A stretch of 64,000 nt of DNA from Minisyncoccota bacterium (GCA_036169735.1 JAVHNX010000036.1:13681-77680), one strand, 5' to 3'; positions 4,346-63,568 are shown, counted from the first letter of the stretch. Numbers and translations: made by a program. Notes: generated by a model not told the origin, from the letters alone.

Positions 4346-4434
4346 GCCATCCCGGCATTTTTTCGATTACTATATAGAATAGCTTTCTTTTGATAATAAA
4401 TCAAACACGAGAGTAAGAAAAAATTTTTTAAATG

Positions 4435-4488
4435 CACACATAAAATTCTGCTGAATTTTTGCTCTGCTCGGCTCGTCAGCCTGCGCAA
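4435..4488 (-). repeat. Conserved ~55-nt element (copy 1) in tRNA-Lys/tRNA-Leu spacer, homologous to mnmA leader element
   Basis: Minus-strand TTGCGCAGGCTGACGAGCCGAGCAGAGCAAAAATTCAGCAGAATTTTATGTGTG is about 85 percent identical to 28823-28877. Small hairpin ggct-gacg-agcc versus ggcc-gaccg-ggcc shows a compensatory change. The spacer is bracketed by cacacgagag...ctctcgtgt. Confidence 0.5.
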
Positions 4489-4521
4489 GGCATTTTAAAA
4501 ACATTTTCTTTCTCTCGTGTG

Positions 4522-7189: not shown

Positions 7190-8530
7190 ATGGTTAAATC
7201 AATCAAAAAATCAAAGAATATATATATGGATTATGCCAGCGGTGCTTCAGCTAATCCTGCCAATCCTGGAGCAATTCACGATTTTGGTGTGAAAGCGAAA
7301 AAACAACTGAATGAAGCAAGGGAAGAAATTGCCAAGATTTTAGGTGCACACTCAAATGAAGTGGTTTTTACCTCAGGGGCAACAGAGAGTAATAATTTGG
7401 CAATTTTGGGAATACTAAGAAAATATTTTGAAACTTTTAGCCCCTATGTCAGACATAGGGGAGTTTCCCCTATGTCTGACATAGGGGCTGTTCCACATAT
7501 TGTTACCACAAACATAGAACATGCATCTGTGCTGGAGGTGTGTAAATATTTAGAAAAAACAAAACAAATAGAAGTGACTTATGTTCCAGTAGAAGAAAAT
7601 GGAATAGTAGATCCGGAGAAAATAAAAAAATCACTTAGACCAAATACGATTTTTGTTTCTGTTATGTATGCGAATAATGAGATTGGAAGTATCCAGCCAA
7701 TAAGAGAAATTGCAAAAGAAATTAGACATTATCGAAAACAAGAAGCGGAAAGAATAAATGAAAAAAGGTCGGACATTAAGAATTTAGAAAGGTCCGACCT
7801 TGGTATTTTTCCAGTTTTTCATACCGATGCGACTCAAGCAATAAATTATTTACCGATCAATGTTGAAAAACTTGGCATTGATTTGTTATCTTTTAATGGA
7901 TCAAAAATTTATGGGCCGAGTGGTGTTGGAGCTTTGTATGTAAAAAGACAGACACCTATCACTAGTATTATATTTGGCGGTGATCAAGAATTTGGATTAA
8001 GACCAGGGACAGAAAATATTGTCGGTATTGTTGGATTAGCAAAAGCTTTAAAAGTTGTAGAACAAATAAAAGATAAAGAAACAAAACGTTTAATTAAACT
8101 AAGAGATTATTTTATTAAAAAAATGTCAAGGTTAAGCCTTGACACTACACATTCCCCGAAACCAGGTTTAGGGGAACTTCCCCTAAACCTGGTTTCGGGG
8201 AAAGTTATACTAAATGGTGACCTAGAAAATAGACTACCAAACAATATAAATATCACTATTCCAAAAATTCCAAGTGATCTTTTGGTAATAGAACTTTCTG
8301 CTCATGGAATTATGGCTTCTGTCAAAAGTGCTTGTAAATCTGGTGACGAAAAGGCATCCCATGTAATACAAGCTATTCGAGAAGCACAACTAGGGGAGTT
8401 ATTGGTTAATAAAGAAATTGACGGATCAATCAGATTTTCTCTTGGTAGACAAACAACCAAAGATGATATTGACTACACACTAAAGGCTTTGTCTCAAATT
8501 TTGACCAAACTAAAAAGGTGGTATAATTAG
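7190..8530 (+). CDS. Cysteine desulfurase, NifS/IscS family (class V aminotransferase), carrying four in-frame palindromic insertions
   Basis: N-terminus IYMDYASGASANP...FTSGATESNNLAILG matches the IscS start, and ...SFNGSKIYGPSGVGALYV matches the PLP-lysine region. At 446 aa it is longer than typical because of the inserted peptides SPYVRHRGVSPMSDIGA, RSDIKNLERSDLG, MSRLSLD and HSPKPGLGELPLNLVSG. Confidence 0.8.
   Translation: MVKSIKKSKNIYMDYASGASANPANPGAIHDFGVKAKKQLNEAREEIAKILGAHSNEVVFTSGATESNNLAILGILRKYFETFSPYVRHRGVSPMSDIGAVPHIVTTNIEHASVLEVCKYLEKTKQIEVTYVPVEENGIVDPEKIKKSLRPNTIFVSVMYANNEIGSIQPIREIAKEIRHYRKQEAERINEKRSDIKNLERSDLGIFPVFHTDATQAINYLPINVEKLGIDLLSFNGSKIYGPSGVGALYVKRQTPITSIIFGGDQEFGLRPGTENIVGIVGLAKALKVVEQIKDKETKRLIKLRDYFIKKMSRLSLDTTHSPKPGLGELPLNLVSGKVILNGDLENRLPNNINITIPKIPSDLLVIELSAHGIMASVKSACKSGDEKASHVIQAIREAQLGELLVNKEIDGSIRFSLGRQTTKDDIDYTLKALSQILTKLKRWYN
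7439..7490. repeat. GC-rich composite palindrome inserted in-frame in nifS
   Basis: agcccctatgtcagacatagggg-ag-ttt-cccctatgtctgacataggggct: a 52-nt palindrome made of two CCCC...GGGG half-palindromes; encodes SPYVRHRGVSPMSDIGA. Confidence 0.7.
7765..7801. repeat. Hairpin element aaggtcggac...gtccgacctt inserted in-frame in nifS
   Basis: 10-bp arms aaggtcggac/gtccgacctt with a 17-nt loop. The same arms form the stem of the rsmI terminator at 58619-58672. Confidence 0.6.
8123..8145. repeat. ATG..CAT hairpin element (family 1) inserted in-frame in nifS
   Basis: atgtcaagg-ttaag-ccttgaca. Near-identical copies at 40142-40164, 57884-57906 and the variant at 49828-49850. Encodes MSRLSLD. Confidence 0.7.
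8154..8200. repeat. GC-rich composite palindrome inserted in-frame in nifS
   Basis: ccccgaaaccaggtttagggg-aactt-cccctaaacctggtttcgggg: a perfect 47-nt palindrome; encodes PKPGLGELPLNLVSG. Confidence 0.7.
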
Positions 8531-9319: not shown

Positions 9320-9324
9320 TTTAA

Positions 9325-9348
9325 CCCTATTGCTCGCGAGCGACGGGG
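9325..9348. promoter_or_regulatory. 24-bp operator-like palindrome abutting the clpB -35 box
   Basis: ccctattgCTCGCGAGcgacgggg. Its reverse complement matches 49974-49997 (ccccgtcgCTCGCGAGtgacaggg) at 16 contiguous positions. Confidence 0.4.
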
Positions 9349-9376
9349 TTGACATTTAATTTATTTATTCTATTAT
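9349..9376 (+). promoter_or_regulatory. Sigma70-type promoter of clpB
   Basis: TTGACA-16 nt-TATTAT, about 15 nt upstream of the clpB ATG (short leaderless-like 5' end). Confidence 0.5.
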
Positions 9377-21944: not shown

Positions 21945-22748
21945 ATGAAAAAATATATAAGTACTCTGTTTTTAGTTGGTTTTCTTATGGTTCCAGGATT
22001 ATCCTTTGCTCAACAGGCAGATGTAAATCCTGCAGGAACATCTGCCTGTGCAGATATTAATGCAAATATAGGCTTTGGTAATCGTGATAGTGATGTAAAT
22101 AGTAATGCCGTATCAATGCTTCAAGATTTTCTAAGTACCAGTGGATTTTTAACAGCTACTCCAAGTGGTTACTTCGGTAGTGCCACATTGAAAGCAATTA
22201 AAGCTTTTCAAGCAGCCAATGGTATAAGTCCAACAGGCTATGTTGGTGCTCTTACTCGTGCAAAGATTAAAGACATTGATTGTAATGGTGGAACTGCAGG
22301 TACAGCACCAGCTAGTCCAATTCAACAACCGGTATCTCCAACAGTAGATAATTCATCGGTAAATAATCCTGCAACAGTTAATCCAGTAGTTCCTAATTTA
22401 TCTGTGAATCCTCTTATCAAAGGTGAAAGTGAAAATAGTAGTGTAAACAAAGGTGAAAGTGAAAGTGAAAATAGTAGTGTAAGTAAAAATGAAAATGAAA
22501 GTGAAAATAGTAGTGTAAGTAAAAATGAAAATGAAGGTGAAAATAGTAGTGTAAACAAAGGTGAAGGTGAAAATAGTAATGCAAACGGAAACAATGCTGA
22601 TTGTTCAGCGGGTGATAAATTTAGTTCAAAAACAGGACAATTATGTTCTAGTATAGCTCCTGTTGTGTATCCAGAAGGTTGTAATGCAAATTTTGCTTTC
22701 AGTCCAGTAACAGGAAAGTCATGTTCTGTTACTAGTTCAACACAATAA
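21945..22748 (+). CDS. Secreted protein with peptidoglycan-binding (PG_binding_1-like) domain and acidic Ser/Glu/Asn tandem repeats
   Basis: Signal peptide; DVNSNAVSMLQDFLSTSGFLTATPSGYFGSATLKAIKAFQAANGISPTGYVGALTRAKI resembles the PG-binding helical repeat; repeat region NSSVNKGESE x about 5; Cys-rich C-terminal end. Confidence 0.5.
   Translation: MKKYISTLFLVGFLMVPGLSFAQQADVNPAGTSACADINANIGFGNRDSDVNSNAVSMLQDFLSTSGFLTATPSGYFGSATLKAIKAFQAANGISPTGYVGALTRAKIKDIDCNGGTAGTAPASPIQQPVSPTVDNSSVNNPATVNPVVPNLSVNPLIKGESENSSVNKGESESENSSVSKNENESENSSVSKNENEGENSSVNKGEGENSNANGNNADCSAGDKFSSKTGQLCSSIAPVVYPEGCNANFAFSPVTGKSCSVTSSTQ
22422..22592 (+). repeat. Coding tandem repeat (30-39-nt units)
   Basis: Repeated gaaaatagtagtgtaa(ac/gt)aaa...gaaagtgaa units encoding NSSV(N/S)K(G/N)E(S/N)E. 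Confidence 0.7.
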
Positions 22749-28901: not shown

Positions 28902-30023
28902 ATGCCACTAAAAAATAAAACTATATTTGTGGGAATGTCAGGCGGGGTGGATTCCTCTGTTTCCGCTGCTATTTTAAAAGACCAGGGGCATAATGTTGTT
29001 GGGGTTTTTATTCGTACCTGGCACCCTGATTTTTTGGTTTGTAATGAAGAAGATGAGCGCCGCGACGCTATGCGCGTCGCGGCGCATTTGGATATTCCAT
29101 TTTTAACTTTTGACCTTTCAGATGTTTACAAAAAAGAAGTCGCAGACTATATGATTGCTGAGTATAAAATGGGCCGTACTCCAAACCCAGATGTGATGTG
29201 CAACAAAGAAGTGAAGTTTGGTGCTTTCTTGAAAAAGGCTCTTGAAATGGGTGCAGATTATGTTGCGACAGGGCATTATGCGCAAGTTTTAGAAAAAAAA
29301 TTAGTTAAAGGTGTTGATTCTTCAAAAGATCAATGTTATTTCTTGTGGACTTTAAAACAAGAACAACTAAAACATATTTTATTTCCCGTAGGGCATTTAA
29401 ATAAAACAGCGGTAAGAAAATTGGCAAAGAAATATAAATTGCCTGTCGCAGAAAAGAAAGACAGTCAAGGGATTTGTTTCCTAGGTGATATTGATTTGAA
29501 AGATTTTTTGAAACATTATATTAAAGAAAAAAAGGGAAAAGTAATAAATGAAAAAGGAGAAGAAATCGGATATCACGATGGTGCTGTTTTTTTGACTCTG
29601 GGAGAACGTCACGGTTTTACTATTACGAAAAAAGGCCCAAATGATGGGGCTTATTATGTTGTTAGTAAAGATGTAAAGAAAAATATCATAATTGTGTCAC
29701 AGATTTCCCCCCTCCTTAATAAGGAGGGGGTTGGGGGTGGTAATTCAAAGAATCACCACCCCGCTCTAAAGAGCACCCTTCCTCAAAAAGGAGGGGAAAA
29801 AATTAGAATTAGTGACATTAATTGGATCTCAAGTACTCCAGATGAAAATAAAGAATACACAGCTCAAGTACGTTATCATGGAGAATTTTTACCTTGCCAA
29901 GTAATTTGTGGAAGTCCGACTTCCGCAAAAGTAATTTTTGAAAAACCTGTACTCGTTGCTCCTGGACAATCAATTGTTTTCTATGATAAAGATATTTGCT
30001 TTGGTGGTGGGGTAGTAGCCTAA
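28902..30023 (+). CDS. mnmA: tRNA-specific 2-thiouridylase MnmA, with an in-frame GC-rich palindromic insertion
   Basis: Start trimmed to MPLKNKTIFVGMSGGVDSSV (PP-loop SGGVDSS). Catalytic Cys region present. Insertion peptide LLNKEGVGGGNSKNHHPALKSTLPQKGGEK comes from palindromes at 29707-29796. Confidence 0.8.
   Translation: MPLKNKTIFVGMSGGVDSSVSAAILKDQGHNVVGVFIRTWHPDFLVCNEEDERRDAMRVAAHLDIPFLTFDLSDVYKKEVADYMIAEYKMGRTPNPDVMCNKEVKFGAFLKKALEMGADYVATGHYAQVLEKKLVKGVDSSKDQCYFLWTLKQEQLKHILFPVGHLNKTAVRKLAKKYKLPVAEKKDSQGICFLGDIDLKDFLKHYIKEKKGKVINEKGEEIGYHDGAVFLTLGERHGFTITKKGPNDGAYYVVSKDVKKNIIIVSQISPLLNKEGVGGGNSKNHHPALKSTLPQKGGEKIRISDINWISSTPDENKEYTAQVRYHGEFLPCQVICGSPTSAKVIFEKPVLVAPGQSIVFYDKDICFGGGVVA
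29707..29796. repeat. Cluster of GC-rich palindromes inserted in-frame in mnmA
   Basis: cccccctccttaat-aaggaggggg, then gggggtggtaattc-aaa-gaatcaccacccc, then cccttcctc-aaaaa-ggagggg. The first resembles the priA insert ccctccccttggcaaggggaggg. Confidence 0.65.
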
Positions 30024-39055: not shown

Positions 39056-39649
39056 ATGAGTGAAGAAAATGAAGAAATAAAAAATATTGAAGAAGTAGAA
39101 TCATCTGAACCTGAATCAGAGGTAGTTGAATTTGAATTCAATGATGACGGTGAAGAAGATTTAAAGAAAACTTTAAAGAAATTTAGAGCTGACATAAAAG
39201 AACTTAAAGCTCAAAAAGAAGAATACTTGACTGGCTGGCAAAAAGAGCGAGCAGACTTCGTGAATTACCGAAAAGAAGAAGAAGAAAGAAATAGGAATTT
39301 TAGAAATATTATCCAAGAAAGAATCTTGGAAAATTTCCTTTCTGTGATGGATAGTTTTGATATGGCTTTTTCCAATAAAGAGGCTTGGGAGAAAGTAGAT
39401 GCAAACTGGAGAACTGGTGTGGAATATATCTATTCTCAGATGAGTAATATCTTTGAAGAATACGGTATCACTTCTATTGGCCAAGTAGGGGAGAAATTCA
39501 ACCCAGAAATTCATCAGTCTGTGGAAGTTGTGGAAACTACTGACCAATCTAAAGATGATACTATCGCTCAAGTTTTACAAAAGGGTTACAAGACAAAAGA
39601 TAAAGTTCTTCGTGCTGCTCGAGTTAAAGTATTTGGACATAAAGAATAG
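39056..39649 (+). CDS. grpE: Nucleotide exchange factor GrpE
   Basis: Acidic N-terminus, long coiled-coil helix (YLTGWQKERADFVNYRKEEE), C-terminal beta domain (...KGYKTKDKVLRAARVKV). Confidence 0.85.
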   Translation: MSEENEEIKNIEEVESSEPESEVVEFEFNDDGEEDLKKTLKKFRADIKELKAQKEEYLTGWQKERADFVNYRKEEEERNRNFRNIIQERILENFLSVMDSFDMAFSNKEAWEKVDANWRTGVEYIYSQMSNIFEEYGITSIGQVGEKFNPEIHQSVEVVETTDQSKDDTIAQVLQKGYKTKDKVLRAARVKVFGHKE

Positions 39650-39652
39650 AAA

Positions 39653-39686
39653 TAAAAAATCTCACATAACTGTGAGATTTTTTATT
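39653..39686. terminator. Bidirectional terminator between grpE (+) and the PaaX-like gene (-)
   Basis: aaaaatctcaca-taac-tgtgagatttttt: hairpin flanked by an A-run and a T-run. Confidence 0.6.
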
Positions 39687-40257
39687 TCTTGAAAGTATCA
39701 AATAAAAACTTTTTAGTTTCTTCGTCGATGAATTGAGTTTTGATTATCATCATCTCAGTAGTGAGCTCTAAATCTTTTTTAATATTTTCAAAAAGATGTT
39801 CATAAGGATAAGGGGAGATCCAAGCAGAATTTTTTAGACATACGAACCCAGCTTTTTTTAATAAATAGCGGAGAGACCCGCGTTCACTTTTTCGGGTCTC
39901 TGGTAAATCTAATAAAATAATTCTCCAATATCCATCCCAGGAAGTATCGACGAGAGTAGTATCACTATCGAGCTTTAAGCTATTTATTTTCTTTTTTCCT
40001 TCTTTTGTTAATCGAGCGTAATCATTCTGACCAGAGGAAATATTCTCTATTAGACCAGCTTCACGAAGGCCTTTTAAAGAGCGTGTGATGGCGTAGGACA
40101 CTTTTAAATCTGCTTTACTTATATTGTTATATAAAGGCTCCATGTCAAGGTTAAGCCTTGACATTTGTTGGCTTAATTCAGGTAGGGAAATAGCTGTTTT
40201 TTCACCTAAAATTTTGAGTATTTTCTTGGAATAGTCGGGTTTAGTTGACATATTCAT
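39682..40257 (-). CDS. PaaX-like transcriptional regulator (N-terminal wHTH, C-terminal PaaX_C-like domain)
   Basis: C-terminal WDGYWRIILLDLPETRKSERGSLRYLLKKAGFVCLKNSAWISPYP fits the PaaX C-terminal pattern (W.G.W.......PE..R..R..LR..L...GF..L..S.W..P). Contains the family-1 hairpin insert encoding MSRLNLDM. Confidence 0.4.
   Translation of the reverse strand: MNMSTKPDYSKKILKILGEKTAISLPELSQQMSRLNLDMEPLYNNISKADLKVSYAITRSLKGLREAGLIENISSGQNDYARLTKEGKKKINSLKLDSDTTLVDTSWDGYWRIILLDLPETRKSERGSLRYLLKKAGFVCLKNSAWISPYPYEHLFENIKKDLELTTEMMIIKTQFIDEETKKFLFDTFKK
40142..40164. repeat. ATG..CAT hairpin element (family 1) inside the PaaX-like CDS
   Basis: atgtcaagg-ttaag-ccttgacat; same element as 8123-8145 and 57884-57906. 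Confidence 0.7.
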
Positions 40258-40308
40258 ATATTATACTATATATTGGCTTTTGACAAGCATTTCGTGGTCA
40301 CGAAAAGC

Positions 40309-40336
40309 TTGCTAAAAATAATGGGGTGTGTATAAT
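40309..40336 (+). promoter_or_regulatory. Putative sigma70-type promoter of dnaK
   Basis: TTGCTA-16 nt-TATAAT, about 180 nt upstream of the dnaK ATG. The leader contains hairpin ctggcg-gagctt-cgccag at 40379-40396. Confidence 0.4.
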
Positions 40337-40519
40337 TGTCTATGTTCATTAAAATTAATCTTTTTATAAAGCAATCTGTCTGGCGGAGCTTCGCCAGCGA
40401 ACTGCTCGTCGCTCAAGAAAATAATAAATGGAATACCATTTTTATTTTCTAAGCTCCTGTGCAAGACTTTCTAAAAAAATTAATTTTAATTTACCTTATA
40501 AACTTAATAAAATAAAATT

Positions 40520-42436
40520 ATGGCAAAAATAATAGGAATAGACTTAGGTACAACAAACTCAGCGGTCGCTATCATCGAAGGTGGTGCGCCAAAAATAATA
40601 GAAAATATTGAAGGTGCTCGTACGACTCCTTCGGTAGTTTCTGTTGCAAAAAATGGAGACAGACTTGTCGGTCTTTTAGCAAAAAGACAAGCGGTCACAA
40701 ATCCTGAAAATACCATCTATGGTATCAAGCGTTTTATGGGTCACAATTTTGAAGATCCAGAAGTACAGAAAGATTTAAAGAATGCTTCTTTTAAAATTCA
40801 GAAAGGTGCAAATGGTGGAGTAGAAGTTAAAATTGGAGATAAGTGGATGCGTCCAGAAGAAATTTCTGCGATGATTCTTTCTAAAATTAAAACAGACGTG
40901 GAAGCAAAGATCGGTGAGAAGATCACTGAAGCGATTATTACTGTACCTGCATATTTTAATGACACACAAAGACAAGCAACTATTGATGCGGGTAAAATTG
41001 CTGGCCTGACTGTAAAAAGAATTATCAATGAACCGACAGCTGCAGCATTGGCTTATGGTTTGAACTCAAAGAAAAATGAAAAGATTGTAGTCTACGATTT
41101 CGGAGGCGGAACAACTGATATCTCTGTTCTTGAAGTTGGTGATGATGTTATCGAAGTTAAATCTACTGATGGTGACAGTCACCTTGGTGGACGTGATATC
41201 GATCACAAAATTATAAATTGGATTGCTGACGAATTTAAAAAGACTTCCGGTGTAGATGTAAGAACTGATGCATTGGCATTGCAGCGTCTTGATGAAGCTG
41301 CAGAAAAAGCAAAAATCGAACTCTCAACAGCTATCGAAACTGAAATAAATATTCCTTTCATTACTTCCACCGCAGCTGGCCCTCAGCACTTGTTGTTGAA
41401 AATGACTCGTGCTCAATTGGAGTCTATCGCTGACGAATATATCACTCGTTCAATAGATATTGCAAAGCGTGCAGTTGCAGCTTCTGGTTTTAAAATCGAA
41501 GAAATAAACGAAATCATAATGGTCGGAGGACAAACCAGAATGCCAAAAATTGTCGAAGAAATAAAGAAACTATTTGGTAAAACTCCAAACCTTACAATCA
41601 ATCCTGATGAAGTTGTTGCTCTTGGTGCTGCTGTTCAAGCAGGAGTATTGCAAGGTGATGTGCGTGATGTCCTTCTTCTTGATGTTATTCCTCTTTCCTT
41701 GGGTATTGAAACACTTGGAGGAGTTGCGACAAAACTTGTAGAAAGAAACACAACTATCCCTTCTTCAAAGTCACAAACATTTTCAACTGCAGCTGACAAT
41801 CAGACTTCTGTCGAAATACACATCGTGCAAGGTGAACGTCCAATGGCTTCCGATAACAAATCTCTAGGAAGATTTATCTTAGACGGTGTTCCTCCAGCTC
41901 CTCGTGGTATGCCACAAGTTGAAGTAACTTTCGATGTTGATGCCAATGGTATTTTGAATGTTACTGCGAAAGAAAAAACTAGTGGTAAAACTCAGACTAT
42001 CAGAATCGAAGCTAGTTCTGGGTTGAAACCTGAAGATATCAAAAAAATGCAAGAAGATGCAGAGCTTCATGCTGATGAAGATAAAAAGAAAAAAGAAGTC
42101 GCTGATGCAAAGAACACAGCTGACATGACTATCTTTACTGCAGAGAAAGCATTAAAAGATAATGAAGGAAAAATTTCAGAAGAAACAAAGAAAGGTGTTG
42201 AAGAAAAAATAACAGCATTGCGTGGAGTAAAAGAAGGTTCAGACATAGAGGCAATAAAGAAATCTATAGATGAACTTTCCAGTGAAATGTCTAAAATTGG
42301 TGAAGAAATGGTAAAAGCATCTTCCAAAGTAGATGATGCTGGTGCACCACCAGTAGAGCCAAAAGAAGAAGCTTCTACTCATGAAGCTGGTTCTAAGGAA
42401 GGTGAAACTCCATCCGCTGACGAAGCTGCAAAATAA
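40520..42436 (+). CDS. dnaK: Chaperone DnaK (Hsp70)
   Basis: [18 protein letters not shown] equivalent ([13 protein letters not shown]), substrate-binding domain and acidic C-terminal lid; 638 aa. Confidence 0.95.
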
Positions 42437-44761: not shown

Positions 44762-45748
44762 ATGGTATTAAAAAAGACACTAAAAAAGAAAGATGTTGTT
44801 ATTTACCAAGCCAAAAATGGAGCTATTGAACTTCGTGGTGATTTTTCTCGTGAAACTGTGTGGGCTACTCAGGCGCAGATTGCTGATGTTTTTCAGACTG
44901 AAAGATCTGTTGTGACTAAGCATATAAGAAATATTCTTAATGATAAAGAACTTAATGCTAATTCAGTATGTGCAAAATTTGCACATACTGCAGATGATGG
45001 AAAGGTTTATCAAGTACAATTTTATAATCTTGATGTTATTTTAGCTGTTGGATATAGAACAAGTTCAAAGAAGGCTATTGAATTTCGTCAGTGGGCAACA
45101 AAAACGTTACGAAGCTATATCGTAGATGGTTTTGCAATAAATAAAAACCGAATTGCTAAAAATTATGAACATTTTTTAAATGTTGTTGATGATATTAAAA
45201 AACTTTTGCCAGCTGAATCTACGGTTAATCCAAAAGATGCTATAGAACTCATATCACTTTTTGCTGATACTTGGCTTTCTTTGGATGCTTATGATCGAGA
45301 AATTTTATCAAAAGGAAAGCTTACAAAAAAGAAAGTTAACATTACTTCCGAAAAAATTTCACGAGATTTATTCGAGCTTAGAAAAATTCTTATTGAAAAA
45401 GGTGAAGCGACAGATATTTTTGGTCACGAAAGAAATGTTGGTTTTGTGTCGGGAATAGTTGATAATGTAATGCAGTCATTCGGAGGCAATGAACTTTATC
45501 CAACAGTTGAAGAAAAGGCTGCACATCTTTTGTATTTTATGGTAAAGAACCATCCATTTACTGATGGTAATAAACGTTCAGGAGCTTTTGCTTTTGTTTG
45601 GTTATTGAAACAGGCAAATATTCTTGATATTCAAAAATTAAGCCCTTCAGCCCTGACAGCATTAACTGTGCTTGTGGCAGAAAGTGACCCAAATCATAAA
45701 GATAAGATTATTAAACTCATTTTGAATCTTATTTCAAAGAATAATTAA
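44762..45748 (+). CDS. RhuM-family N-terminal domain fused to Fic/Doc domain
   Basis: N-terminus VVIYQAKNGAIELRGDFSRETVWATQAQIADVFQTERSVVTKHIRNI matches the RhuM family. C-terminus has the Fic motif HPFTDGNKRSG. Confidence 0.7.
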   Translation: MVLKKTLKKKDVVIYQAKNGAIELRGDFSRETVWATQAQIADVFQTERSVVTKHIRNILNDKELNANSVCAKFAHTADDGKVYQVQFYNLDVILAVGYRTSSKKAIEFRQWATKTLRSYIVDGFAINKNRIAKNYEHFLNVVDDIKKLLPAESTVNPKDAIELISLFADTWLSLDAYDREILSKGKLTKKKVNITSEKISRDLFELRKILIEKGEATDIFGHERNVGFVSGIVDNVMQSFGGNELYPTVEEKAAHLLYFMVKNHPFTDGNKRSGAFAFVWLLKQANILDIQKLSPSALTALTVLVAESDPNHKDKIIKLILNLISKNN

Positions 45749-49814: not shown

Positions 49815-49827
49815 CTTCGTGTTAAAT

Positions 49828-49850
49828 ATGTCAAAGATGCCCTTTGACAT
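49828..49850. repeat. Family-1-like ATG..CAT hairpin just after the prfA stop
   Basis: atgtcaaag-atgcc-ctttgacat; variant of atgtcaagg-ttaag-ccttgacat; may act as the prfA terminator. Confidence 0.5.
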
Positions 49851-49973
49851 GCATATTGTTTATAGTATTTATCCACACAGTATAGTTTCATTGCTTTTTC
49901 TCACTTTTGTGCTATACTGCTCCAGTAGTTTCTCCAATAGCTTTTTGTTTGAGTTGTGAGTTTTGATTTGTAC

Positions 49974-49997
49974 CCCGTCGCTCGCGAGTGACAGGGT
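49974..49997. promoter_or_regulatory. 24-bp operator-like palindrome upstream of the RRM protein gene promoter
   Basis: ccccgtcgCTCGCGAGtgacaggg; partner of 9325-9348 upstream of clpB. Confidence 0.4.
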
Positions 49998-50016
49998 TTG
50001 GCACCAATTAGGCCAA

Positions 50017-52586: not shown

Positions 52587-52594
52587 TGGAATGA

Positions 52595-52716
52595 ATCCCG
52601 TTAGAAGCCGCGGTCGCAGTTTCAAATCGGGATATAAATTAATTAGGATTAAAAAAATAATTAGCAGGAAATGGTTTATTTAAAAAGATTGACCGTGACC
52701 TGCTTCTAAACGGGAT
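52595..52716. repeat. IR-flanked intergenic element A (atpE-atpF spacer); right arm overlaps atpF start codon
   Basis: Left arm atcccgttagaagc (52595-52608), right arm gcttctaaacgggat (52702-52716); about 90-nt AT-rich interior; atpF ATG at 52715. Confidence 0.6.
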
Positions 52717-53211: not shown

Positions 53212-53628
53212 ATGATTAAATCAAAACAACTGGCTCAGGCTTTATTTGAACTCTCAGAAGAGGAGAACTTGGTAGCAGGACTACCAAGTTCACTTGGTAG
53301 TCCTGCTACCAAGTCATTGGATGAGAAGTTTTTTAGTTTTATTGAAAAAAGAAATTTGAAAGGACAGATGAACTCAGTCCTTTATCACTTGGAAAGAATC
53401 ACTGAACAAGAAAAAGAAAAGAAGGGTATACAGATAGAAACAGCTCATGAGATAAAAGCTGAGACTGCCAAACAAATAAAGACTTTCCTAAAAGCTGATC
53501 ACCTGACTGAATCATTAAAAATCAAAAAAGAATTAGTCGCAGGATTTCGAGCGAAGTTCGGAGGAAAGATTTATGATTCGAGTATTATGACTGGTTTGAA
53601 GAAATTAGAAAGAGAGATTGCCAAATAA
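53212..53628 (+). CDS. atpH: F0F1 ATP synthase subunit delta (short, 138 aa)
   Basis: Operon position. C-terminal IKKELVAGFRAKFGGKIYDSSIMTGLKKL resembles the OSCP/delta C-terminus. Confidence 0.65.
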   Translation: MIKSKQLAQALFELSEEENLVAGLPSSLGSPATKSLDEKFFSFIEKRNLKGQMNSVLYHLERITEQEKEKKGIQIETAHEIKAETAKQIKTFLKADHLTESLKIKKELVAGFRAKFGGKIYDSSIMTGLKKLEREIAK

Positions 53629-57498: not shown

Positions 57499-57622
57499 AT
57501 CCCGTTAGAGGTAGGAAGTCTTTAGACTTCCGTCAGTGTTGCCACTAAAAGTTACTTAACTAAATTTATTATAAAATATTCATTCATCAATAATATAAAA
57601 ACTATATGACCTCTAACGGGAT
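57499..57622. repeat. IR-flanked intergenic element B (atpD-atpC spacer); right arm lies in codons 2-6 of atpC
   Basis: Left arm atcccgttagaggt (57499-57512), right arm acctctaacgggat (57609-57622); inner hairpin ggaagtc-tttag-gacttcc; atpC ATG at 57606. Confidence 0.6.
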
Positions 57623-57872: not shown

Positions 57873-57883
57873 AATGAAAAAAA

Positions 57884-57906
57884 ATGGCAAGGTTAAGCCT
57901 TGCCAT
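57884..57906. repeat. ATG..CAT hairpin element (family 1), intergenic copy after atpC
   Basis: atggcaagg-ttaag-ccttgccat. Confidence 0.65.
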
Positions 57907-57931: not shown

Positions 57932-58609
57932 ATGTCTAAATTTTACGTAGTTGCTACACCGATAGGAAATATGGGAGACATTACCTTCCGAGCTATTGAA
58001 ACACTTAAAGAAGTGGATTTGATACTGTGCGAAGATACCCGTGATACAAAAAGGATTCTTGATAGGTACAATATCAGTAAACCGATGATGAGTTATCATG
58101 CCCAGAGTAAACTCGCAAAGGTGGATAAGATTTTTGAATTATTGGAAGAAGGTAAGAATCTTGCTTTAGTTTCAGATGCTGGCACACCAGGTATTTCTGA
58201 TCCCGGTGCTATGCTAGTTTTTAAAATAAAAGAAAGATTTACAACTGAAGAAGTCCAAGTTATTCCGATACCGGGAGCAACTGCTCTTGTAGCTGCTCTT
58301 TGTGCTTCTGGGCTGCCTACTCATGAATTTACATTTATCGGTTTTATGCCCCACAAGAAAGGCAGAGAAACATTGTTTAAAGAAATAGCAGAAGCAAAAC
58401 GTACAATGGTTTTTTACGAGTCCCCACACAGAATTTTAAAAACTTTAGAATCATTGATAAAATTCTGTCCAGACAAAAAAGTTTGCATTGCTCGTGAAAT
58501 AACAAAAATCTACGAAGAATTTAAAACCGGTTCAGCCGCAGAGCTTCTAGAATATCTGACAGTTAATCCCGTAAAACAAAAAGGGGAGTTTGTTGTGCTT
58601 GTAGCGTAA
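57932..58609 (+). CDS. rsmI: 16S rRNA (cytidine1402-2'-O)-methyltransferase RsmI
   Basis: Tetrapyrrole-methylase-fold start FYVVATPIGNMGDITFRAIETLKEVDLILCEDTR...; 225 aa. Confidence 0.7.
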   Translation: MSKFYVVATPIGNMGDITFRAIETLKEVDLILCEDTRDTKRILDRYNISKPMMSYHAQSKLAKVDKIFELLEEGKNLALVSDAGTPGISDPGAMLVFKIKERFTTEEVQVIPIPGATALVAALCASGLPTHEFTFIGFMPHKKGRETLFKEIAEAKRTMVFYESPHRILKTLESLIKFCPDKKVCIAREITKIYEEFKTGSAAELLEYLTVNPVKQKGEFVVLVA

Positions 58610-59692: not shown

Positions 59693-61636
59693 CTATAAGA
59701 TATTTTCTGGATCGATATTTACTGAAAATTCACGAGGAAGTAACAAAAGTTTTTCAAGAAGTTTTTCATCAATTTTAGAATTTGTAGATAGTTCAGGTAA
59801 GGACCATTTTTTAGTATCTATTTTTATTAACATATTTGTGACATATTTATCTTTTATTTTACTCACGAAACCACTAAAAATCTCAGGGTCATAATCTTTG
59901 AATACTTCTTCAAGGGCTTTTTTTGTATGAATTGAATCTTCTTTATTTCCCATGTGCGTGATTTTAATAAAACGTTTAAATGGAGGATATCCAAGATTTT
60001 TTCTATCTTCTAATTCTTCACGCACAAAAGACAATATGTTTTCTGTCTCAACTGCATGGATAGCTGGGTCTTGCTTATTTTTGGTTTGGATAATAAGTTT
60101 GTCTTTTGTTTTGGAAATTATCGAAAAAATAAGTTGGATAATTTTCTCATTCATTTTGAAACTAGGCACACTCCAAAGTGAATCAAAAGAAGCGATGACT
60201 GAGAGGGTAACAGGTTCTTTTATATATAGTAGTGCCATCTCAGTACCGACGAGTATTGATCCAGGATTCTCTTCAAATTCCTTTATTATTTTTATTGCAC
60301 CTTTGGTTGTCTTGGCTGATTCTTTGTCGAGTTTAAAAATTTTTGTTTCAGGGAAAAGTTTTTGAGCTTCTTCAAATACAGTATCAGTACCAATACCGAG
60401 CGGCATAAGATTCCAACTATTACAATTTAAACATCTGGTCTCAGGATCTTTTTCTGTATTACATCGGTTACAAGCAAACATTCTTTTTTTACCATCTCTA
60501 GATAAATAAAGGACGACAGGTACGGAACATTTTGTGCACATGACTGGTTCATTACAATCTCGGCAAAGTGTCTCTGTTGCCAGGCCTTTTCGTAGTGAAA
60601 ATATAAAAATGCTTTCTTTTTTTGTAATCACTTCTTGTATTTCTTGGGCAGTATCGTCAGTTAATACTTTAAATTTCTCTTCCTTTTTTTCTGGTATTTT
60701 TATTTCTCCTTCAAAATTTAACCTGAAAGATAATGGGTGTACTTCAGAAAAATTATCCATTTCTTTTCGAGCTATTGTTTCAAAATGAAGTAGGGAATCA
60801 CCGAGTATAAGTTTGGCACTTATCTTTGAAGCATAAAGTTCCACAAATGAACGCAGGTCGAAATAAGGCCTATTCATCATTTTGTAAGCATTGGAACTCT
60901 CATGTTCCAGGATAATAGTCCCAAAATCACGACGTGGTATAGATAAAAATGGTGCAGTACCAAATACGAGGACTGGGTGTGAGGAAGTTACAATCTCATC
61001 AAATTTTTTTAAAATCTTTTTTGGTCCCAATCCTGCATACATTGAGAAGCTGAAGTTCTCGATTCCTTTCGATAATGTTTTTGAAAATATCTCAATATCT
61101 ATCTCAGTAGGTAAAACTATAAAAACTGATTTTTTTTCTGCGAATGATCCACGGATCAGAGTCTTGTAAAAAGAAATACGATCTTCAAGTGGATATTGAA
61201 AAAGTAATTTTTCTTTTTTTATATTCACCCCTCCCAACCCTCCCCTTGGCAAGGGGAGGGCAATGGTGTAATCTTCATTTTTTATTTTAGATATCTTGTC
61301 GTACTCTTCTCGAAAGATTGATGGGATCAAAGTCACAATTGCATCATTTTTTCTTGTTGCAAAATATTTACTGATGTCGAGAGTGGACTCGATATATTCT
61401 TTTAAGAAAATTGAGTTCTCTTTTACTTCAGTTATTTTTTTTAGATTGAATGCCAGGTTTTTTATATCAGATTTTGTGTCAGTTGCTTTCTCTGAAGAGA
61501 CCGCTAGACCAAGTATTTGTTTATTTCGAATTGGCACAGTCACAATACTCCCATCAGGTATATTTTTTGAGCTAAAATAGGTCAGATTTTCCCTGAAAGC
61601 TCCTTTTTCCAACGGGATTACTGTCACGATTTTCAT
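59693..61636 (-). CDS. priA: Primosomal protein N' (PriA) homolog; helicase motifs degenerate
   Basis: N-terminal 3'-DNA-binding domain (MKIVTVIPLEKGAFRENL...GSIVTVPIRNKQILGLAV). Cys-rich zinc-binding region CRDCNEPVMCTKCSVP...CNRCNTEK...CLNCNS. No recognizable GxGKT Walker A; DExH reads ILEHESS. Contains GC-rich palindromic insert encoding LPLPRGGLGG. Confidence 0.65.
   Translation of the reverse strand: MKIVTVIPLEKGAFRENLTYFSSKNIPDGSIVTVPIRNKQILGLAVSSEKATDTKSDIKNLAFNLKKITEVKENSIFLKEYIESTLDISKYFATRKNDAIVTLIPSIFREEYDKISKIKNEDYTIALPLPRGGLGGVNIKKEKLLFQYPLEDRISFYKTLIRGSFAEKKSVFIVLPTEIDIEIFSKTLSKGIENFSFSMYAGLGPKKILKKFDEIVTSSHPVLVFGTAPFLSIPRRDFGTIILEHESSNAYKMMNRPYFDLRSFVELYASKISAKLILGDSLLHFETIARKEMDNFSEVHPLSFRLNFEGEIKIPEKKEEKFKVLTDDTAQEIQEVITKKESIFIFSLRKGLATETLCRDCNEPVMCTKCSVPVVLYLSRDGKKRMFACNRCNTEKDPETRCLNCNSWNLMPLGIGTDTVFEEAQKLFPETKIFKLDKESAKTTKGAIKIIKEFEENPGSILVGTEMALLYIKEPVTLSVIASFDSLWSVPSFKMNEKIIQLIFSIISKTKDKLIIQTKNKQDPAIHAVETENILSFVREELEDRKNLGYPPFKRFIKITHMGNKEDSIHTKKALEEVFKDYDPEIFSGFVSKIKDKYVTNMLIKIDTKKWSLPELSTNSKIDEKLLEKLLLLPREFSVNIDPENIL
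61226..61268. repeat. GC-rich palindrome inserted in-frame in priA
   Basis: cacccctcccaa-ccctccccttggcaaggggaggg-caatggtg. Confidence 0.65.
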
Positions 61637-62842: not shown

Positions 62843-63568
62843 ATGAAAATTTTAGAACATTTAGACAAAAACAATCTACACCATGCATATCTCATAGAAG
62901 GATCTCGAACTGAGATTTTACCGGAAATTTTTTCCTTCCTAGAAGATATAGATATTAAAACTTCAGCCAATCCTGATTTTTATAATATTGTTATTGATAA
63001 TTTTAAAATCGATGATGCCTTGAATCTCAGAGCTTCTGGTTCTGAAAAAAGTTTTTCTTCGGGCAAGAAGATATTTATCCTTTCTGTAAATCAATTCACC
63101 TTAGACGCACAAGGGGTTCTTTTAAAAATGTTTGAAAACCCGTCTCCTGATACACATTTTTTTTTGATCATGCCTGACACAGCTGCACTGTTAAAAACAG
63201 TTATTTCCAGATTTTATTATATTTCTACGAAACCGGAAATGGTTGATGAAATAAAAGAAGCTGAGAAATTTATCAGTATGAAATTAAGTGACAGAATAGA
63301 ATTTTTAAAAATATTTTCAAAACTGGAAAAAGATGAAGATGATGAATCTGCAGCAGTGACAGACGAAGAATCTCCTCGCATAAAAGCATCTAAATTTTTG
63401 AATGCATTAGAAATAGCTTTACATAATAAAATGTCAAAGACTGCATTTGACACATTTGACACATCTTTTTTCAAACACTTCTTTAAGGTTCGAGAATTTC
63501 TTCGTCAGCCTGGTTCCTCTACAAAATCTCTTATGGAGTCAGTGGCTATCATCGTGCCAAATTTATAA
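62843..63568 (+). CDS. DNA polymerase III delta'-like clamp-loader subunit (HolB-like, Walker A absent)
   Basis: HAYLIEG start and ...LLKMFENPSPDTHFFLIMPDTAALLKTVISR (sensor-1/SRC-like region) resemble the delta-prime/delta N-terminal AAA+ fold; 241 aa. Confidence 0.45.
   Translation: MKILEHLDKNNLHHAYLIEGSRTEILPEIFSFLEDIDIKTSANPDFYNIVIDNFKIDDALNLRASGSEKSFSSGKKIFILSVNQFTLDAQGVLLKMFENPSPDTHFFLIMPDTAALLKTVISRFYYISTKPEMVDEIKEAEKFISMKLSDRIEFLKIFSKLEKDEDDESAAVTDEESPRIKASKFLNALEIALHNKMSKTAFDTFDTSFFKHFFKVREFLRQPGSSTKSLMESVAIIVPNL

Follow-up and report, generated by a model that had tools for sequence, protein, structure and literature searches.

The 64,000-nt stretch of DNA of an ultra-small Minisyncoccota bacterium analysed here (GCA_036169735.1, JAVHNX010000036.1:13681-77680; hereafter, the window) raises the question of how a 23-nt hairpin came to lie in frame within the gene of a NifS/IscS-like cysteine desulfurase (Aminotran_5; open reading frame (ORF) 7190-8530, + strand), where it encodes MSRLSLD, and why near-identical hairpins, designated Family-1, recur elsewhere in the window. 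The answer that we are inclined to accept, with some reserve, is that Family-1 is a miniature non-coding hairpin repeat of the repetitive extragenic palindromic (REP) type, carried by Patescibacteria, tolerated in frame and spread by a transposase of the Y1 kind, similar to the REP-associated tyrosine transposases (RAYTs). A mobile element of this type was favoured because near-identical hairpins bracket a gene for an IS200/RAYT-like transposase in a related bacterium. Protein matches assigned the window (GC content of ~34%) to Patescibacteria, alternatively called the Candidate Phyla Radiation (CPR), and within it to Minisyncoccia/Paceibacteria. The closest genome was the metagenome-assembled genome (MAG) JBAQFC01 (GCA_049287045.1; JBAQFC below), with a DNA identity of 90-96% across syntenic stretches. 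JAHFNH01 (JAHFNH below) was a ~80% identical relative, and the Logan contig L001 was 99.9% identical to the window.

Family-1 hairpins in the window

The copies and candidate members identified in the window were the following:

8123-8145, no strand assigned: Family-1 copy 1, ATGTCAAGGTTAAGCCTTGACAC, composed of ATGTCAAGG-TTAAG-CCTTGACAC
40142-40164, no strand assigned: Family-1 copy 2, ATGTCAAGGTTAAGCCTTGACAT, perfect 9-bp stem, loop TTAAG
57884-57906, no strand assigned: Family-1 copy 3, ATGGCAAGGTTAAGCCTTGCCAT, composed of ATGGCAAGG-TTAAG-CCTTGCCAT
49828-49850, + strand: variant hairpin, ATGTCAAAGATGCCCTTTGACAT, composed of ATGTCAAAG-ATGCC-CTTTGACAT, just 3' of the prfA stop codon
63431-63453, + strand: candidate degenerate member, ATGTCAAAGACTGCATTTGACAC, 7-bp stem, 7-nt loop

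An earlier note, made from the DNA of the window alone, had described the first four as a dispersed family, and the positions that it gave (8123, 40142, 57884 and 49828) were all correct, as were the locations of the three main copies in the nifS coding sequence (CDS), in a PaaX-like CDS on the - strand and in the intergenic region after atpC. The host of copy 2 was an ORF similar to PaaX_M-domain regulators (39682-40257, - strand), in which the hairpin is read in frame as MSRLNLD, and copy 3 was intergenic, with atpC on one side and a TP_methylase (rsmI-like) gene (57932-58609) on the other. The 9-bp stem beginning with ATG and ending with CAT, which the note had attributed to the family, was found in perfect form in copy 2; copy 1 terminates with CAC, not CAT, and its stem is therefore 8 bp long with an additional A/C mismatch. 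A separate palindrome of 57 nt (8149-8205) follows copy 1 after a gap of 3 nt. The stem of copy 3 contains one compensatory pair (T>G / A>C). The outer arms of the prfA variant are those of Family-1, with one inner pair compensatorily changed and a different loop, and its membership is probable, not certain. The candidate at 63431-63453 lies inside a DNA polymerase III delta'-like gene (62843-63568) and may be due to chance.

A search for the 23-mer with up to 3 mismatches retrieved only the three main copies, with 0.00 expected from 100 shuffles of the window, and a 15-nt core (CAAGGTTAAGCCTTG) occurred 3 times versus 0.2 expected. As the shuffled sequences predict none, the hairpins constitute a genuine dispersed repeat family. 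Their folding energies were -9 to -14 kcal/mol as RNA (z-scores of -4.5 to -7.5) and -7 to -9 kcal/mol as DNA, far below those of shuffled controls.

Reading frame and peptide

Translation of the element revealed that frame 1 is the sole frame open in both orientations, yielding MSRLSLD or MSRLNLD, which confirmed the earlier claim that either strand encodes MSRL(S/N)LD. Frames 2 and 3 reach TAA or TGA, with one exception: in the CTTAA orientation, frame 2 encodes CQGLTLT. All the copies located in CDSs use frame 1, with the peptide M/V/I-S-R-L-S/N-L-D, and the peptide of the element is constant because no other frame is open in both orientations. The CDS copies were positioned at variable loops or linkers, and the peptide added by them is most likely harmless or tolerated.

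Distribution of Family-1 beyond the window

A pattern of the core with positions 3 and 19 left free (TGNCAAGGTTAAGCCTTGNCA) was scanned across 185,579 species genomes and matched 11 loci: three in JBAQFC, two in the Saccharibacteria MAG CAYIHD, one in an unplaced MAG and, as the remainder, single matches in Prevotella (one gene in three species), a Flavobacteriaceae contig and Thiodubiliella. The core was multi-copy in CPR MAGs only. The JBAQFC matches corresponded to the orthologous nifS copy (L002), the linker of rsmE (L008, peptide VSRLNLD) and a gene encoding an FAD-linked oxidase (L010, peptide MSRLNLD), the latter two genes being outside the window. Family-1 is thus not confined to the window, as relatives carry further copies at non-orthologous sites. 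The rsmE copy was also present in the Logan contig L032, which probably derives from the window species; its rsmE region was 97% identical to that of JBAQFC.

The single exact 21-mer matches outside CPR were roughly at the level of chance (about 4 in 596 Gb by our own estimate), which would suit the explanation that the hairpins as a whole arose by chance or by codon-driven coincidence, or are artefacts of assembly or adapters. This explanation is effectively refuted by the expectation of zero copies in the window, by the multi-copy state of the element within lineages and by the recovery of the same copies from independent assemblies, namely Logan contig L001 and, for the nifS copy, the JBAQFC MAG.

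A metagenome scan added the Prevotella gene, three 16S rRNA genes and three other contigs. An origin from 16S rRNA was considered and rejected: the 15-21-mer in the three 16S genes (L017, L025 and L026) forms part of the conserved GGCTTAACC hairpin ~600 nt into the gene, and since these genes come from unrelated organisms, the matches were treated as the coincidence of a common stable hairpin. A viral origin was likewise rejected, as IMG/VR contained no match for the hairpin DNA pattern and none for the transposase described below.

Looser searches of the examined loci retrieved relatives of the hairpin with other loops. A distant lineage of 46% GC (L031) had the loop TTGAA in its NifS gene, in the same region and offset by three codons, and this loop also occurred at a second rsmE site (L034). 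The loop TTCAA was found in terminator-like intergenic hairpins of JBAQFC (L028 13660 and L002 301) and JAPLXQ (L035 16822). Separately, an unplaced contig of ~46% GC carried a version of the hairpin with a 13-bp stem (GCTCATGTCAAGG-CTTAA-CCTTGACATGAGC; L022 938-968) that overlaps the 3' end of a gene similar to those of extracytoplasmic function (ECF) sigma factors and provides its last residues, VKVKP, together with the stop codon.

Association with a Y1 transposase gene in Saccharibacteria

In the MAG CAYIHD, three hairpin copies were located within 16 kb, and two of them bracket an ORF of 227 aa:

L003:1088-1771, - strand: transposase ORF, Pfam Y1_Tnp (PF01797), 28.9 bits with a cutoff of 23

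The best NCBIfam match of this ORF was the 'REP-associated tyrosine transposase' model (REP_Tyr_transpos), with a score of 38.5, which is below the equivalog cutoff of 80. The protein contains an HUH motif (HYH, within MPNHYHLL) and a tyrosine motif (RYIHCNP), and a PDB sequence search returned no match for it. The upstream hairpin (TGTCAAGGTTAAGCCTTGCCA) is identical to the window core at 20/21 positions and ends 18 nt before the transposase ATG; the downstream hairpin (TGTCAAGGTTAAACCTTGCCG), identical at 18/21 positions, overlaps the transposase stop codon and supplies the final residues RQGLTLT. The third copy (L009) is a solo hairpin in the uvrA-uvrB interval. Hairpins on both sides of such a gene correspond to the layout of REPtrons, in which REPs accompany a RAYT gene. 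Eleven contigs were read, and in all six places shown the transposase gene had the same context, consisting of genes for an HYR surface protein and ribonucleotide reductase; it appears to be a single-copy gene. The suggestion of the earlier note that Family-1 spreads in a manner resembling REPs or miniature inverted-repeat transposable elements (MITEs) gained support in its REP part from these near-identical hairpins on both sides of a Y1/RAYT-like gene. Its MITE part failed, as detailed below.

Presence and absence at orthologous sites

The note had further claimed that two different proteins acquired the peptide, and both cases were borne out by comparisons with orthologues. The JBAQFC orthologue of the PaaX-like gene lacks a 42-nt block (40123-40164) made up of the hairpin and 19 additional nucleotides, and it encodes 177 aa versus 191 aa in the window; the nearest PaaX-like homologues were 12-14 aa shorter in the same loop. 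NifS orthologues mostly lack the peptide. An alignment of 20 of them contained four hypervariable insertion sites, with Family-1 in the third, and a solved cysteine desulfurase had no counterpart for ~19 residues around copy 1. Of the 120 closest NifS homologues, the only ones with MSRL[SN]LD were the JBAQFC protein and a Logan fragment that matched the window exactly, both from the window lineage, and those of the distant L031 lineage. The FAD-oxidase gene of JAHFNH was shorter around the hairpin site. The prfA variant lies within a block of ~50 nt (~49815-49865) that is absent from JAHFNH and retained in JBAQFC, where an 11-nt duplication of the left arm is accompanied by a 13-bp stem. Copy 3 was found exactly at a synteny breakpoint: homology to JBAQFC stops at 57878, and the atpC-rsmI interval contains extra genes (for a penicillin-binding protein (PBP) and others) in both JBAQFC and JAHFNH.

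Junctions of this kind could also be read as templated filler left by replication template-switching or break repair, similar to microhomology-mediated break-induced replication (MMBIR), with no dedicated transposase involved. Copy 3 would then be exactly ~28 nt of novel sequence at the junction of a multi-gene deletion or rearrangement, and the 19 extra nucleotides of no traced origin in the PaaX-like insertion (no second copy of them was found in the window) would have a place, as would the resemblance of the rsmE site to a replacement of a ~21-nt block and the slippage-type changes near the prfA variant in JBAQFC (the 11-nt duplication and a 4-nt indel). We nevertheless consider templated filler quite improbable, because it would leave unexplained both the identical copies across different CPR classes and the pair of hairpins flanking the Y1 transposase gene; no microhomology at donor junctions was demonstrable, and the atpC junction is equally well explained by a deletion between two pre-existing copies of the repeat.

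Conservation of stem pairing

Base pairing of the stem is maintained by compensatory changes. At the orthologous site in the rsmE linker of JAPLXQ (L035), the hairpin has the form TATCGAGG-TTAAA-CCTCGATA and is read as ATA TCG AGG TTA AAC CTC GAT, i.e., ISRLNLD. In comparison to Family-1, two stem pairs differed in both of their bases, and each of the four changes fell at a third codon position; 3/4 of them were silent and one belonged to a conservative V-to-I change, with SRLNLD retained. Over 16 distinct copies, six of the nine stem pairs had double changes and 93% of the cells paired, which was not equalled in any of 500 shuffles, although this test is partly circular, because several of the copies came from hairpin searches. 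The rsmE case is not circular, as it was reached through protein homology.

Such conservation raises the alternative that the hairpin is a functional cis-element selected in place, either as an RNA or DNA structure (a terminator, an attenuator or a site of mRNA stability or processing) or as a palindrome bound by a dimeric protein, and that it arose by point mutation where the coding sequence was already close to x-S-R-L-x-L-D. The third-position changes that keep the stem at the rsmE site agree with this view, and neither the rsmE linker nor the histidine kinase gene of the unplaced MAG (MSRLSLD versus the native FSRLERK) changed in length. The native peptides of other sites also resemble that of the hairpin (IKKLNKLN in NifS and FSEINLND at RsmE site 2), the intergenic copies, including those at L028 13660 and L002 301, look like terminators, and in the distant L031 lineage, NifS again carries this stem in the same region. 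We regard selection in place as unlikely all the same. Copies were gained or lost between genomes that are ~92% identical; they lie mid-gene, in unrelated genes and in both orientations, with no common neighbour gene; and, with its 5-nt loop conserved, the hairpin is better explained by copies made from one common source than by convergence. Selection in place would also leave the bracketing of the transposase gene unexplained, and no Rfam family matched the hairpin.

Proposed spread as a REP-type element

Short palindromes of the REP type are handled by HUH tyrosine transposases (Y1, IS200/RAYT-like). Returning to the REP-type mobile element, we suggest that the same kind of enzyme as that found in Saccharibacteria spread the copies in the window lineage. 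The 8-9-bp stem with its 5-nt loop would fold in single-stranded DNA (ssDNA), for example at replication forks, and a Y1 transposase would recognise, cut and rejoin the hairpin, so that solo copies would be seeded at new sites. Copies within genes would persist only in the stop-free frame, in either orientation, and in tolerant loops or linkers; intergenic copies could double as terminator-like hairpins, and the stem would stay paired over time.

Several observations weigh against this reading, chief among them the failure to find a transposase in this lineage, the sites of unchanged length and the 21-mer basis of the link to Saccharibacteria. Most copies are intragenic, unlike classical REPs, and their number is low, with 3 exact core matches in the whole JBAQFC assembly. 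The flanks of at least 10 copies contained no GTAG or CGTC tag and no conserved motif, only a weak A...T preference that lengthens the stem. No Y1 transposase was found among 38 ORFs of the window with Pfam, nor by tblastn in any of the examined Minisyncoccia loci, and the hairpins of Saccharibacteria are linked to the window copies by 21-mer sequence identity alone. The two hairpins that flank the transposase gene are in direct orientation; the flanking hairpins of REPtrons are typically inverted. The insertion in the PaaX-like gene measures 42 nt, not 23. Finally, alignments to homologues, including solved structures, placed the hairpins of the rsmE linker and of the histidine kinase gene (L012) at native positions with no indel, and a simple insertion fits poorly with the lack of a net length change. 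The histidine-kinase match could be one of the chance matches.

If the REP-like reading is true, hairpins of the REP/RAYT type extend to CPR, and Family-1 would be a clean example of a selfish hairpin shaped by translation on either strand, with the same peptide both ways. The hairpin and the Y1 enzyme of Saccharibacteria would also form a small testable pair for the biochemistry of ssDNA transposases.

Comparison with known systems

Family-1 resembles REPs and REPtrons in being a short dispersed palindrome (21-23 nt; REPs measure ~20-40 nt), in having similar copies on both sides of a Y1/HUH transposase gene in the Saccharibacteria MAG and in the terminator-like appearance of some copies. REPs inside genes, and recurring at the same gene site in related species, have been reported, as have species with REPtrons or REP-like flanks and few repeats (PMC3733652). 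A GTAG or CGTC tetranucleotide tag marks the two big REP superfamilies (PMC3733652). Family-1, in contrast, is untagged, very low in copy number and mostly intragenic, and its stem is perfect, unlike the imperfect stems of REPs. It also differs from REPtrons in the direct orientation of the flanking copies and in that no RAYT has been seen so far in the window lineage (the window and the examined Minisyncoccia loci). The literature searched contained neither a REP family described for CPR nor a description of coding palindromes in CPR.

As to in-frame palindromes, Ogata and co-workers, whose work PMC3733652 cites, are said to have described in 2000 the Rickettsia palindromic elements (RPEs), of ~100-150 nt, in frame in the genes of functional proteins. 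Their host is a small, AT-rich, host-dependent bacterium, and to our knowledge RPEs are specific to Rickettsia and have no transposase. Family-1 shares with them the character of a selfish-type palindrome that adds short peptides in frame at tolerant sites, and it does not belong to them: it measures 21-23 nt, comes from another phylum, is unrelated in sequence and has a transposase lead. Since intragenic REPs and RPEs are already known, Family-1 is a variant of such elements. The coding palindromes of Nematomorpha mitochondria (PMC6649704) are likewise perfect inverted repeats in protein genes with both arms translated, but they reach 284 bp and are mitochondrial and locus-specific, rather than a dispersed short family.

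Subterminal hairpins of the IS200/IS605 family and of its miniature derivatives, the palindrome-associated transposable elements (PATEs), offer a further parallel, in that a Y1 transposase recognises them in ssDNA form. The left- and right-end hairpins of IS200/IS605 are on the same strand, as are the two copies flanking the L003 ORF. By contrast, the L003 transposase gene is apparently single-copy, each solo Family-1 unit consists of one hairpin and lacks defined ends, and no cleavage tetranucleotide proved to be conserved. MITEs are 70-300 bp long, with terminal inverted repeats (TIRs) of 15-30 bp and a target-site duplication. Family-1, at 23 nt, has no TIRs, and comparisons of filled and empty PaaX-like and prfA sites yielded no target-site duplication; these and the FAD-oxidase comparison were too divergent or complex for exact boundaries or a target duplication to be resolved. 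A search for a larger element with the same termini was also unsuccessful, as the window contained no distant TGTCAAGG...CCTTGACA pairs.

Orientation and other possible roles

Replication-linked strand bias has reportedly been established for the IS200/IS605 family (Ton-Hoang and colleagues, 2010), and the earlier note had proposed unidirectional propagation of Family-1 from the constant orientation of its loop. TTAAG is indeed on the + strand in all three main copies. The cumulative GC-skew minimum is at ~7.5 kb, i.e., at the divergent gene pair 7165/7190, no replication origin was located in the window, and the three copies are all to the right of the minimum, on a stretch with positive GC skew. 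The argument is based on n=3 and one such stretch. When the relatives were evaluated against the local GC skew, the rsmE (L008) and L012 copies agreed with the window and the FAD-oxidase copy (L010) was opposite, so that 5/6 copies agreed, which is not significant, and propagation in one direction was left unsupported. The two intergenic copies of JBAQFC with TTCAA/TTGAA loops were opposite to one another. A perfect DnaA box (TTATCCACA) is present at 49869-49877, just 3' of prfA, and is kept in JBAQFC and JAHFNH.

With regard to termination, copy 3 resembles an intrinsic terminator, with a T-run after the hairpin, solely on the - strand, the antisense one; on the + strand, the prfA variant is a weak fit, and the CDS copies have no T-run. 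Rfam covariance models applied to the window reached the gathering score for tRNAs only, with no hairpin family. A promoter was considered in view of TTGACA or TTGCCA in the right arm and rejected for poor spacing to -10-like hexamers and weak scan matches. Sites of the parS type, uptake signals and nucleoid-protein sites were rejected owing to unsuitable copy number and turnover, and Family-1 presumably resembles none of the known ones in sequence.

The PaaX_M-domain gene, winged-helix-like, is flanked by grpE and dnaK (39056-42436), a slot that usually holds a heat-shock repressor gene (hrcA or hspR in other bacteria). From this position, it could encode a regulator of the chaperone operon in this lineage. 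A role of copy 2 as a heat-shock operator in the grpE-dnaK interval was rejected, as the nearest relative lacks the copy; its sequence is, we assume, neither the controlling inverted repeat of chaperone expression (CIRCE) nor the HspR-associated inverted repeat (HAIR).

Other palindromes and TIR elements in the window and its relatives

Long perfect or near-perfect palindromes were also present inside CDSs of the window, at 7439-7489, 8149-8205, 29057-29085, 29708-29730, 44964-44990, 53267-53314 and 61238-61260. They have stems of 11-25 bp, are often GC-rich and form in-frame, RPE-like inserts in nifS (two), an mnmA-like gene (two), a Fic/RhuM gene, atpH and a priA-like gene. AtpH comprises 138 aa in the window versus 124 aa in JBAQFC, which is consistent with the absence of the 48-nt palindrome from the latter. 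At NifS insertion site 1, where the window has its palindrome of 51 nt (7439-7489), JBAQFC carries, in frame, a different element (L002 5796-5873). This element is ~85% identical to one of ~75 nt at 4424-4501, which is intergenic among the tRNA genes of the window. The different elements at this site in close relatives indicate one protein site with alternative occupants.

Two MITE-like elements of ~125 nt (52590-52715 and 57499-57622), with common TIRs of ~16 nt (AATCCCGTTAGARG ... CYTCTAACGGGAT) and unrelated interiors, occupy the atpE-atpF and atpD-atpC spacers. JBAQFC has neither of them at these sites, and its atpE-atpF spacer contains a TTCAA-type hairpin instead. In the FAD-oxidase gene, JBAQFC and JAHFNH each carried, in frame and at identical positions, two copies of a TIR element of 70-85 nt:

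L010, 5464-5549 and 5940-6006: TIR elements in the FAD-oxidase gene of JBAQFC
L029, 6060-6143 and 6523-6598: TIR elements in the FAD-oxidase gene of JAHFNH

The two genomes have different families of the element, and a related sequence is present in the atpE-atpF spacer of JAHFNH; the arrangement suggests concerted replacement at fixed sites. Two RsmE proteins that are 97% identical (P0241 and P0242) have alternative peptides at one insertion site in the C-terminal third (WERDGASTSKNSAEFYGC versus HYAGRRAEYSNSSADEYVCF), both of which recur in other relatives, as if a single palindromic cassette had been read in two ways or flipped.

Paceibacteria or CPR might possess a wider system, not described so far, with Family-1 as its smallest member, in which many families of palindromic or TIR mini-cassettes at fixed permissive sites of housekeeping proteins are exchanged, flipped or replaced concertedly between close relatives, sometimes with no change in length; we hold this to be rather improbable, and put it forward as speculation. 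If true, it would imply targeted or homology-guided replacement (e.g., driven by a Y1 transposase or by template switching) that keeps remodelling the surface loops of proteins, in contrast to random insertion followed by decay. Cassettes swapped in housekeeping genes between close relatives may be more interesting than Family-1 itself. The length variation and odd peptides of CPR housekeeping proteins such as NifS, RsmE, AtpH and the FAD oxidase would often stem from mobile palindromes, which matter for the annotation, phylogenetic alignment and structure prediction of these reduced genomes.

Two further repeats were noted in the window. A GC-rich palindrome of 27 nt (ACCCCGTCGCTCGCGAGYGAC...) is dispersed at 9323-9349 and 49972-49998; the latter copy, 3' of prfA, is absent from JBAQFC, and the JAHFNH sequence at this place is different. 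Tandem repeats with a 12-nt phase (36-nt units, rich in Ser/Glu/Asn/Gly) extend over 22424-22603 in a PG_binding_1 gene (21945-22748).

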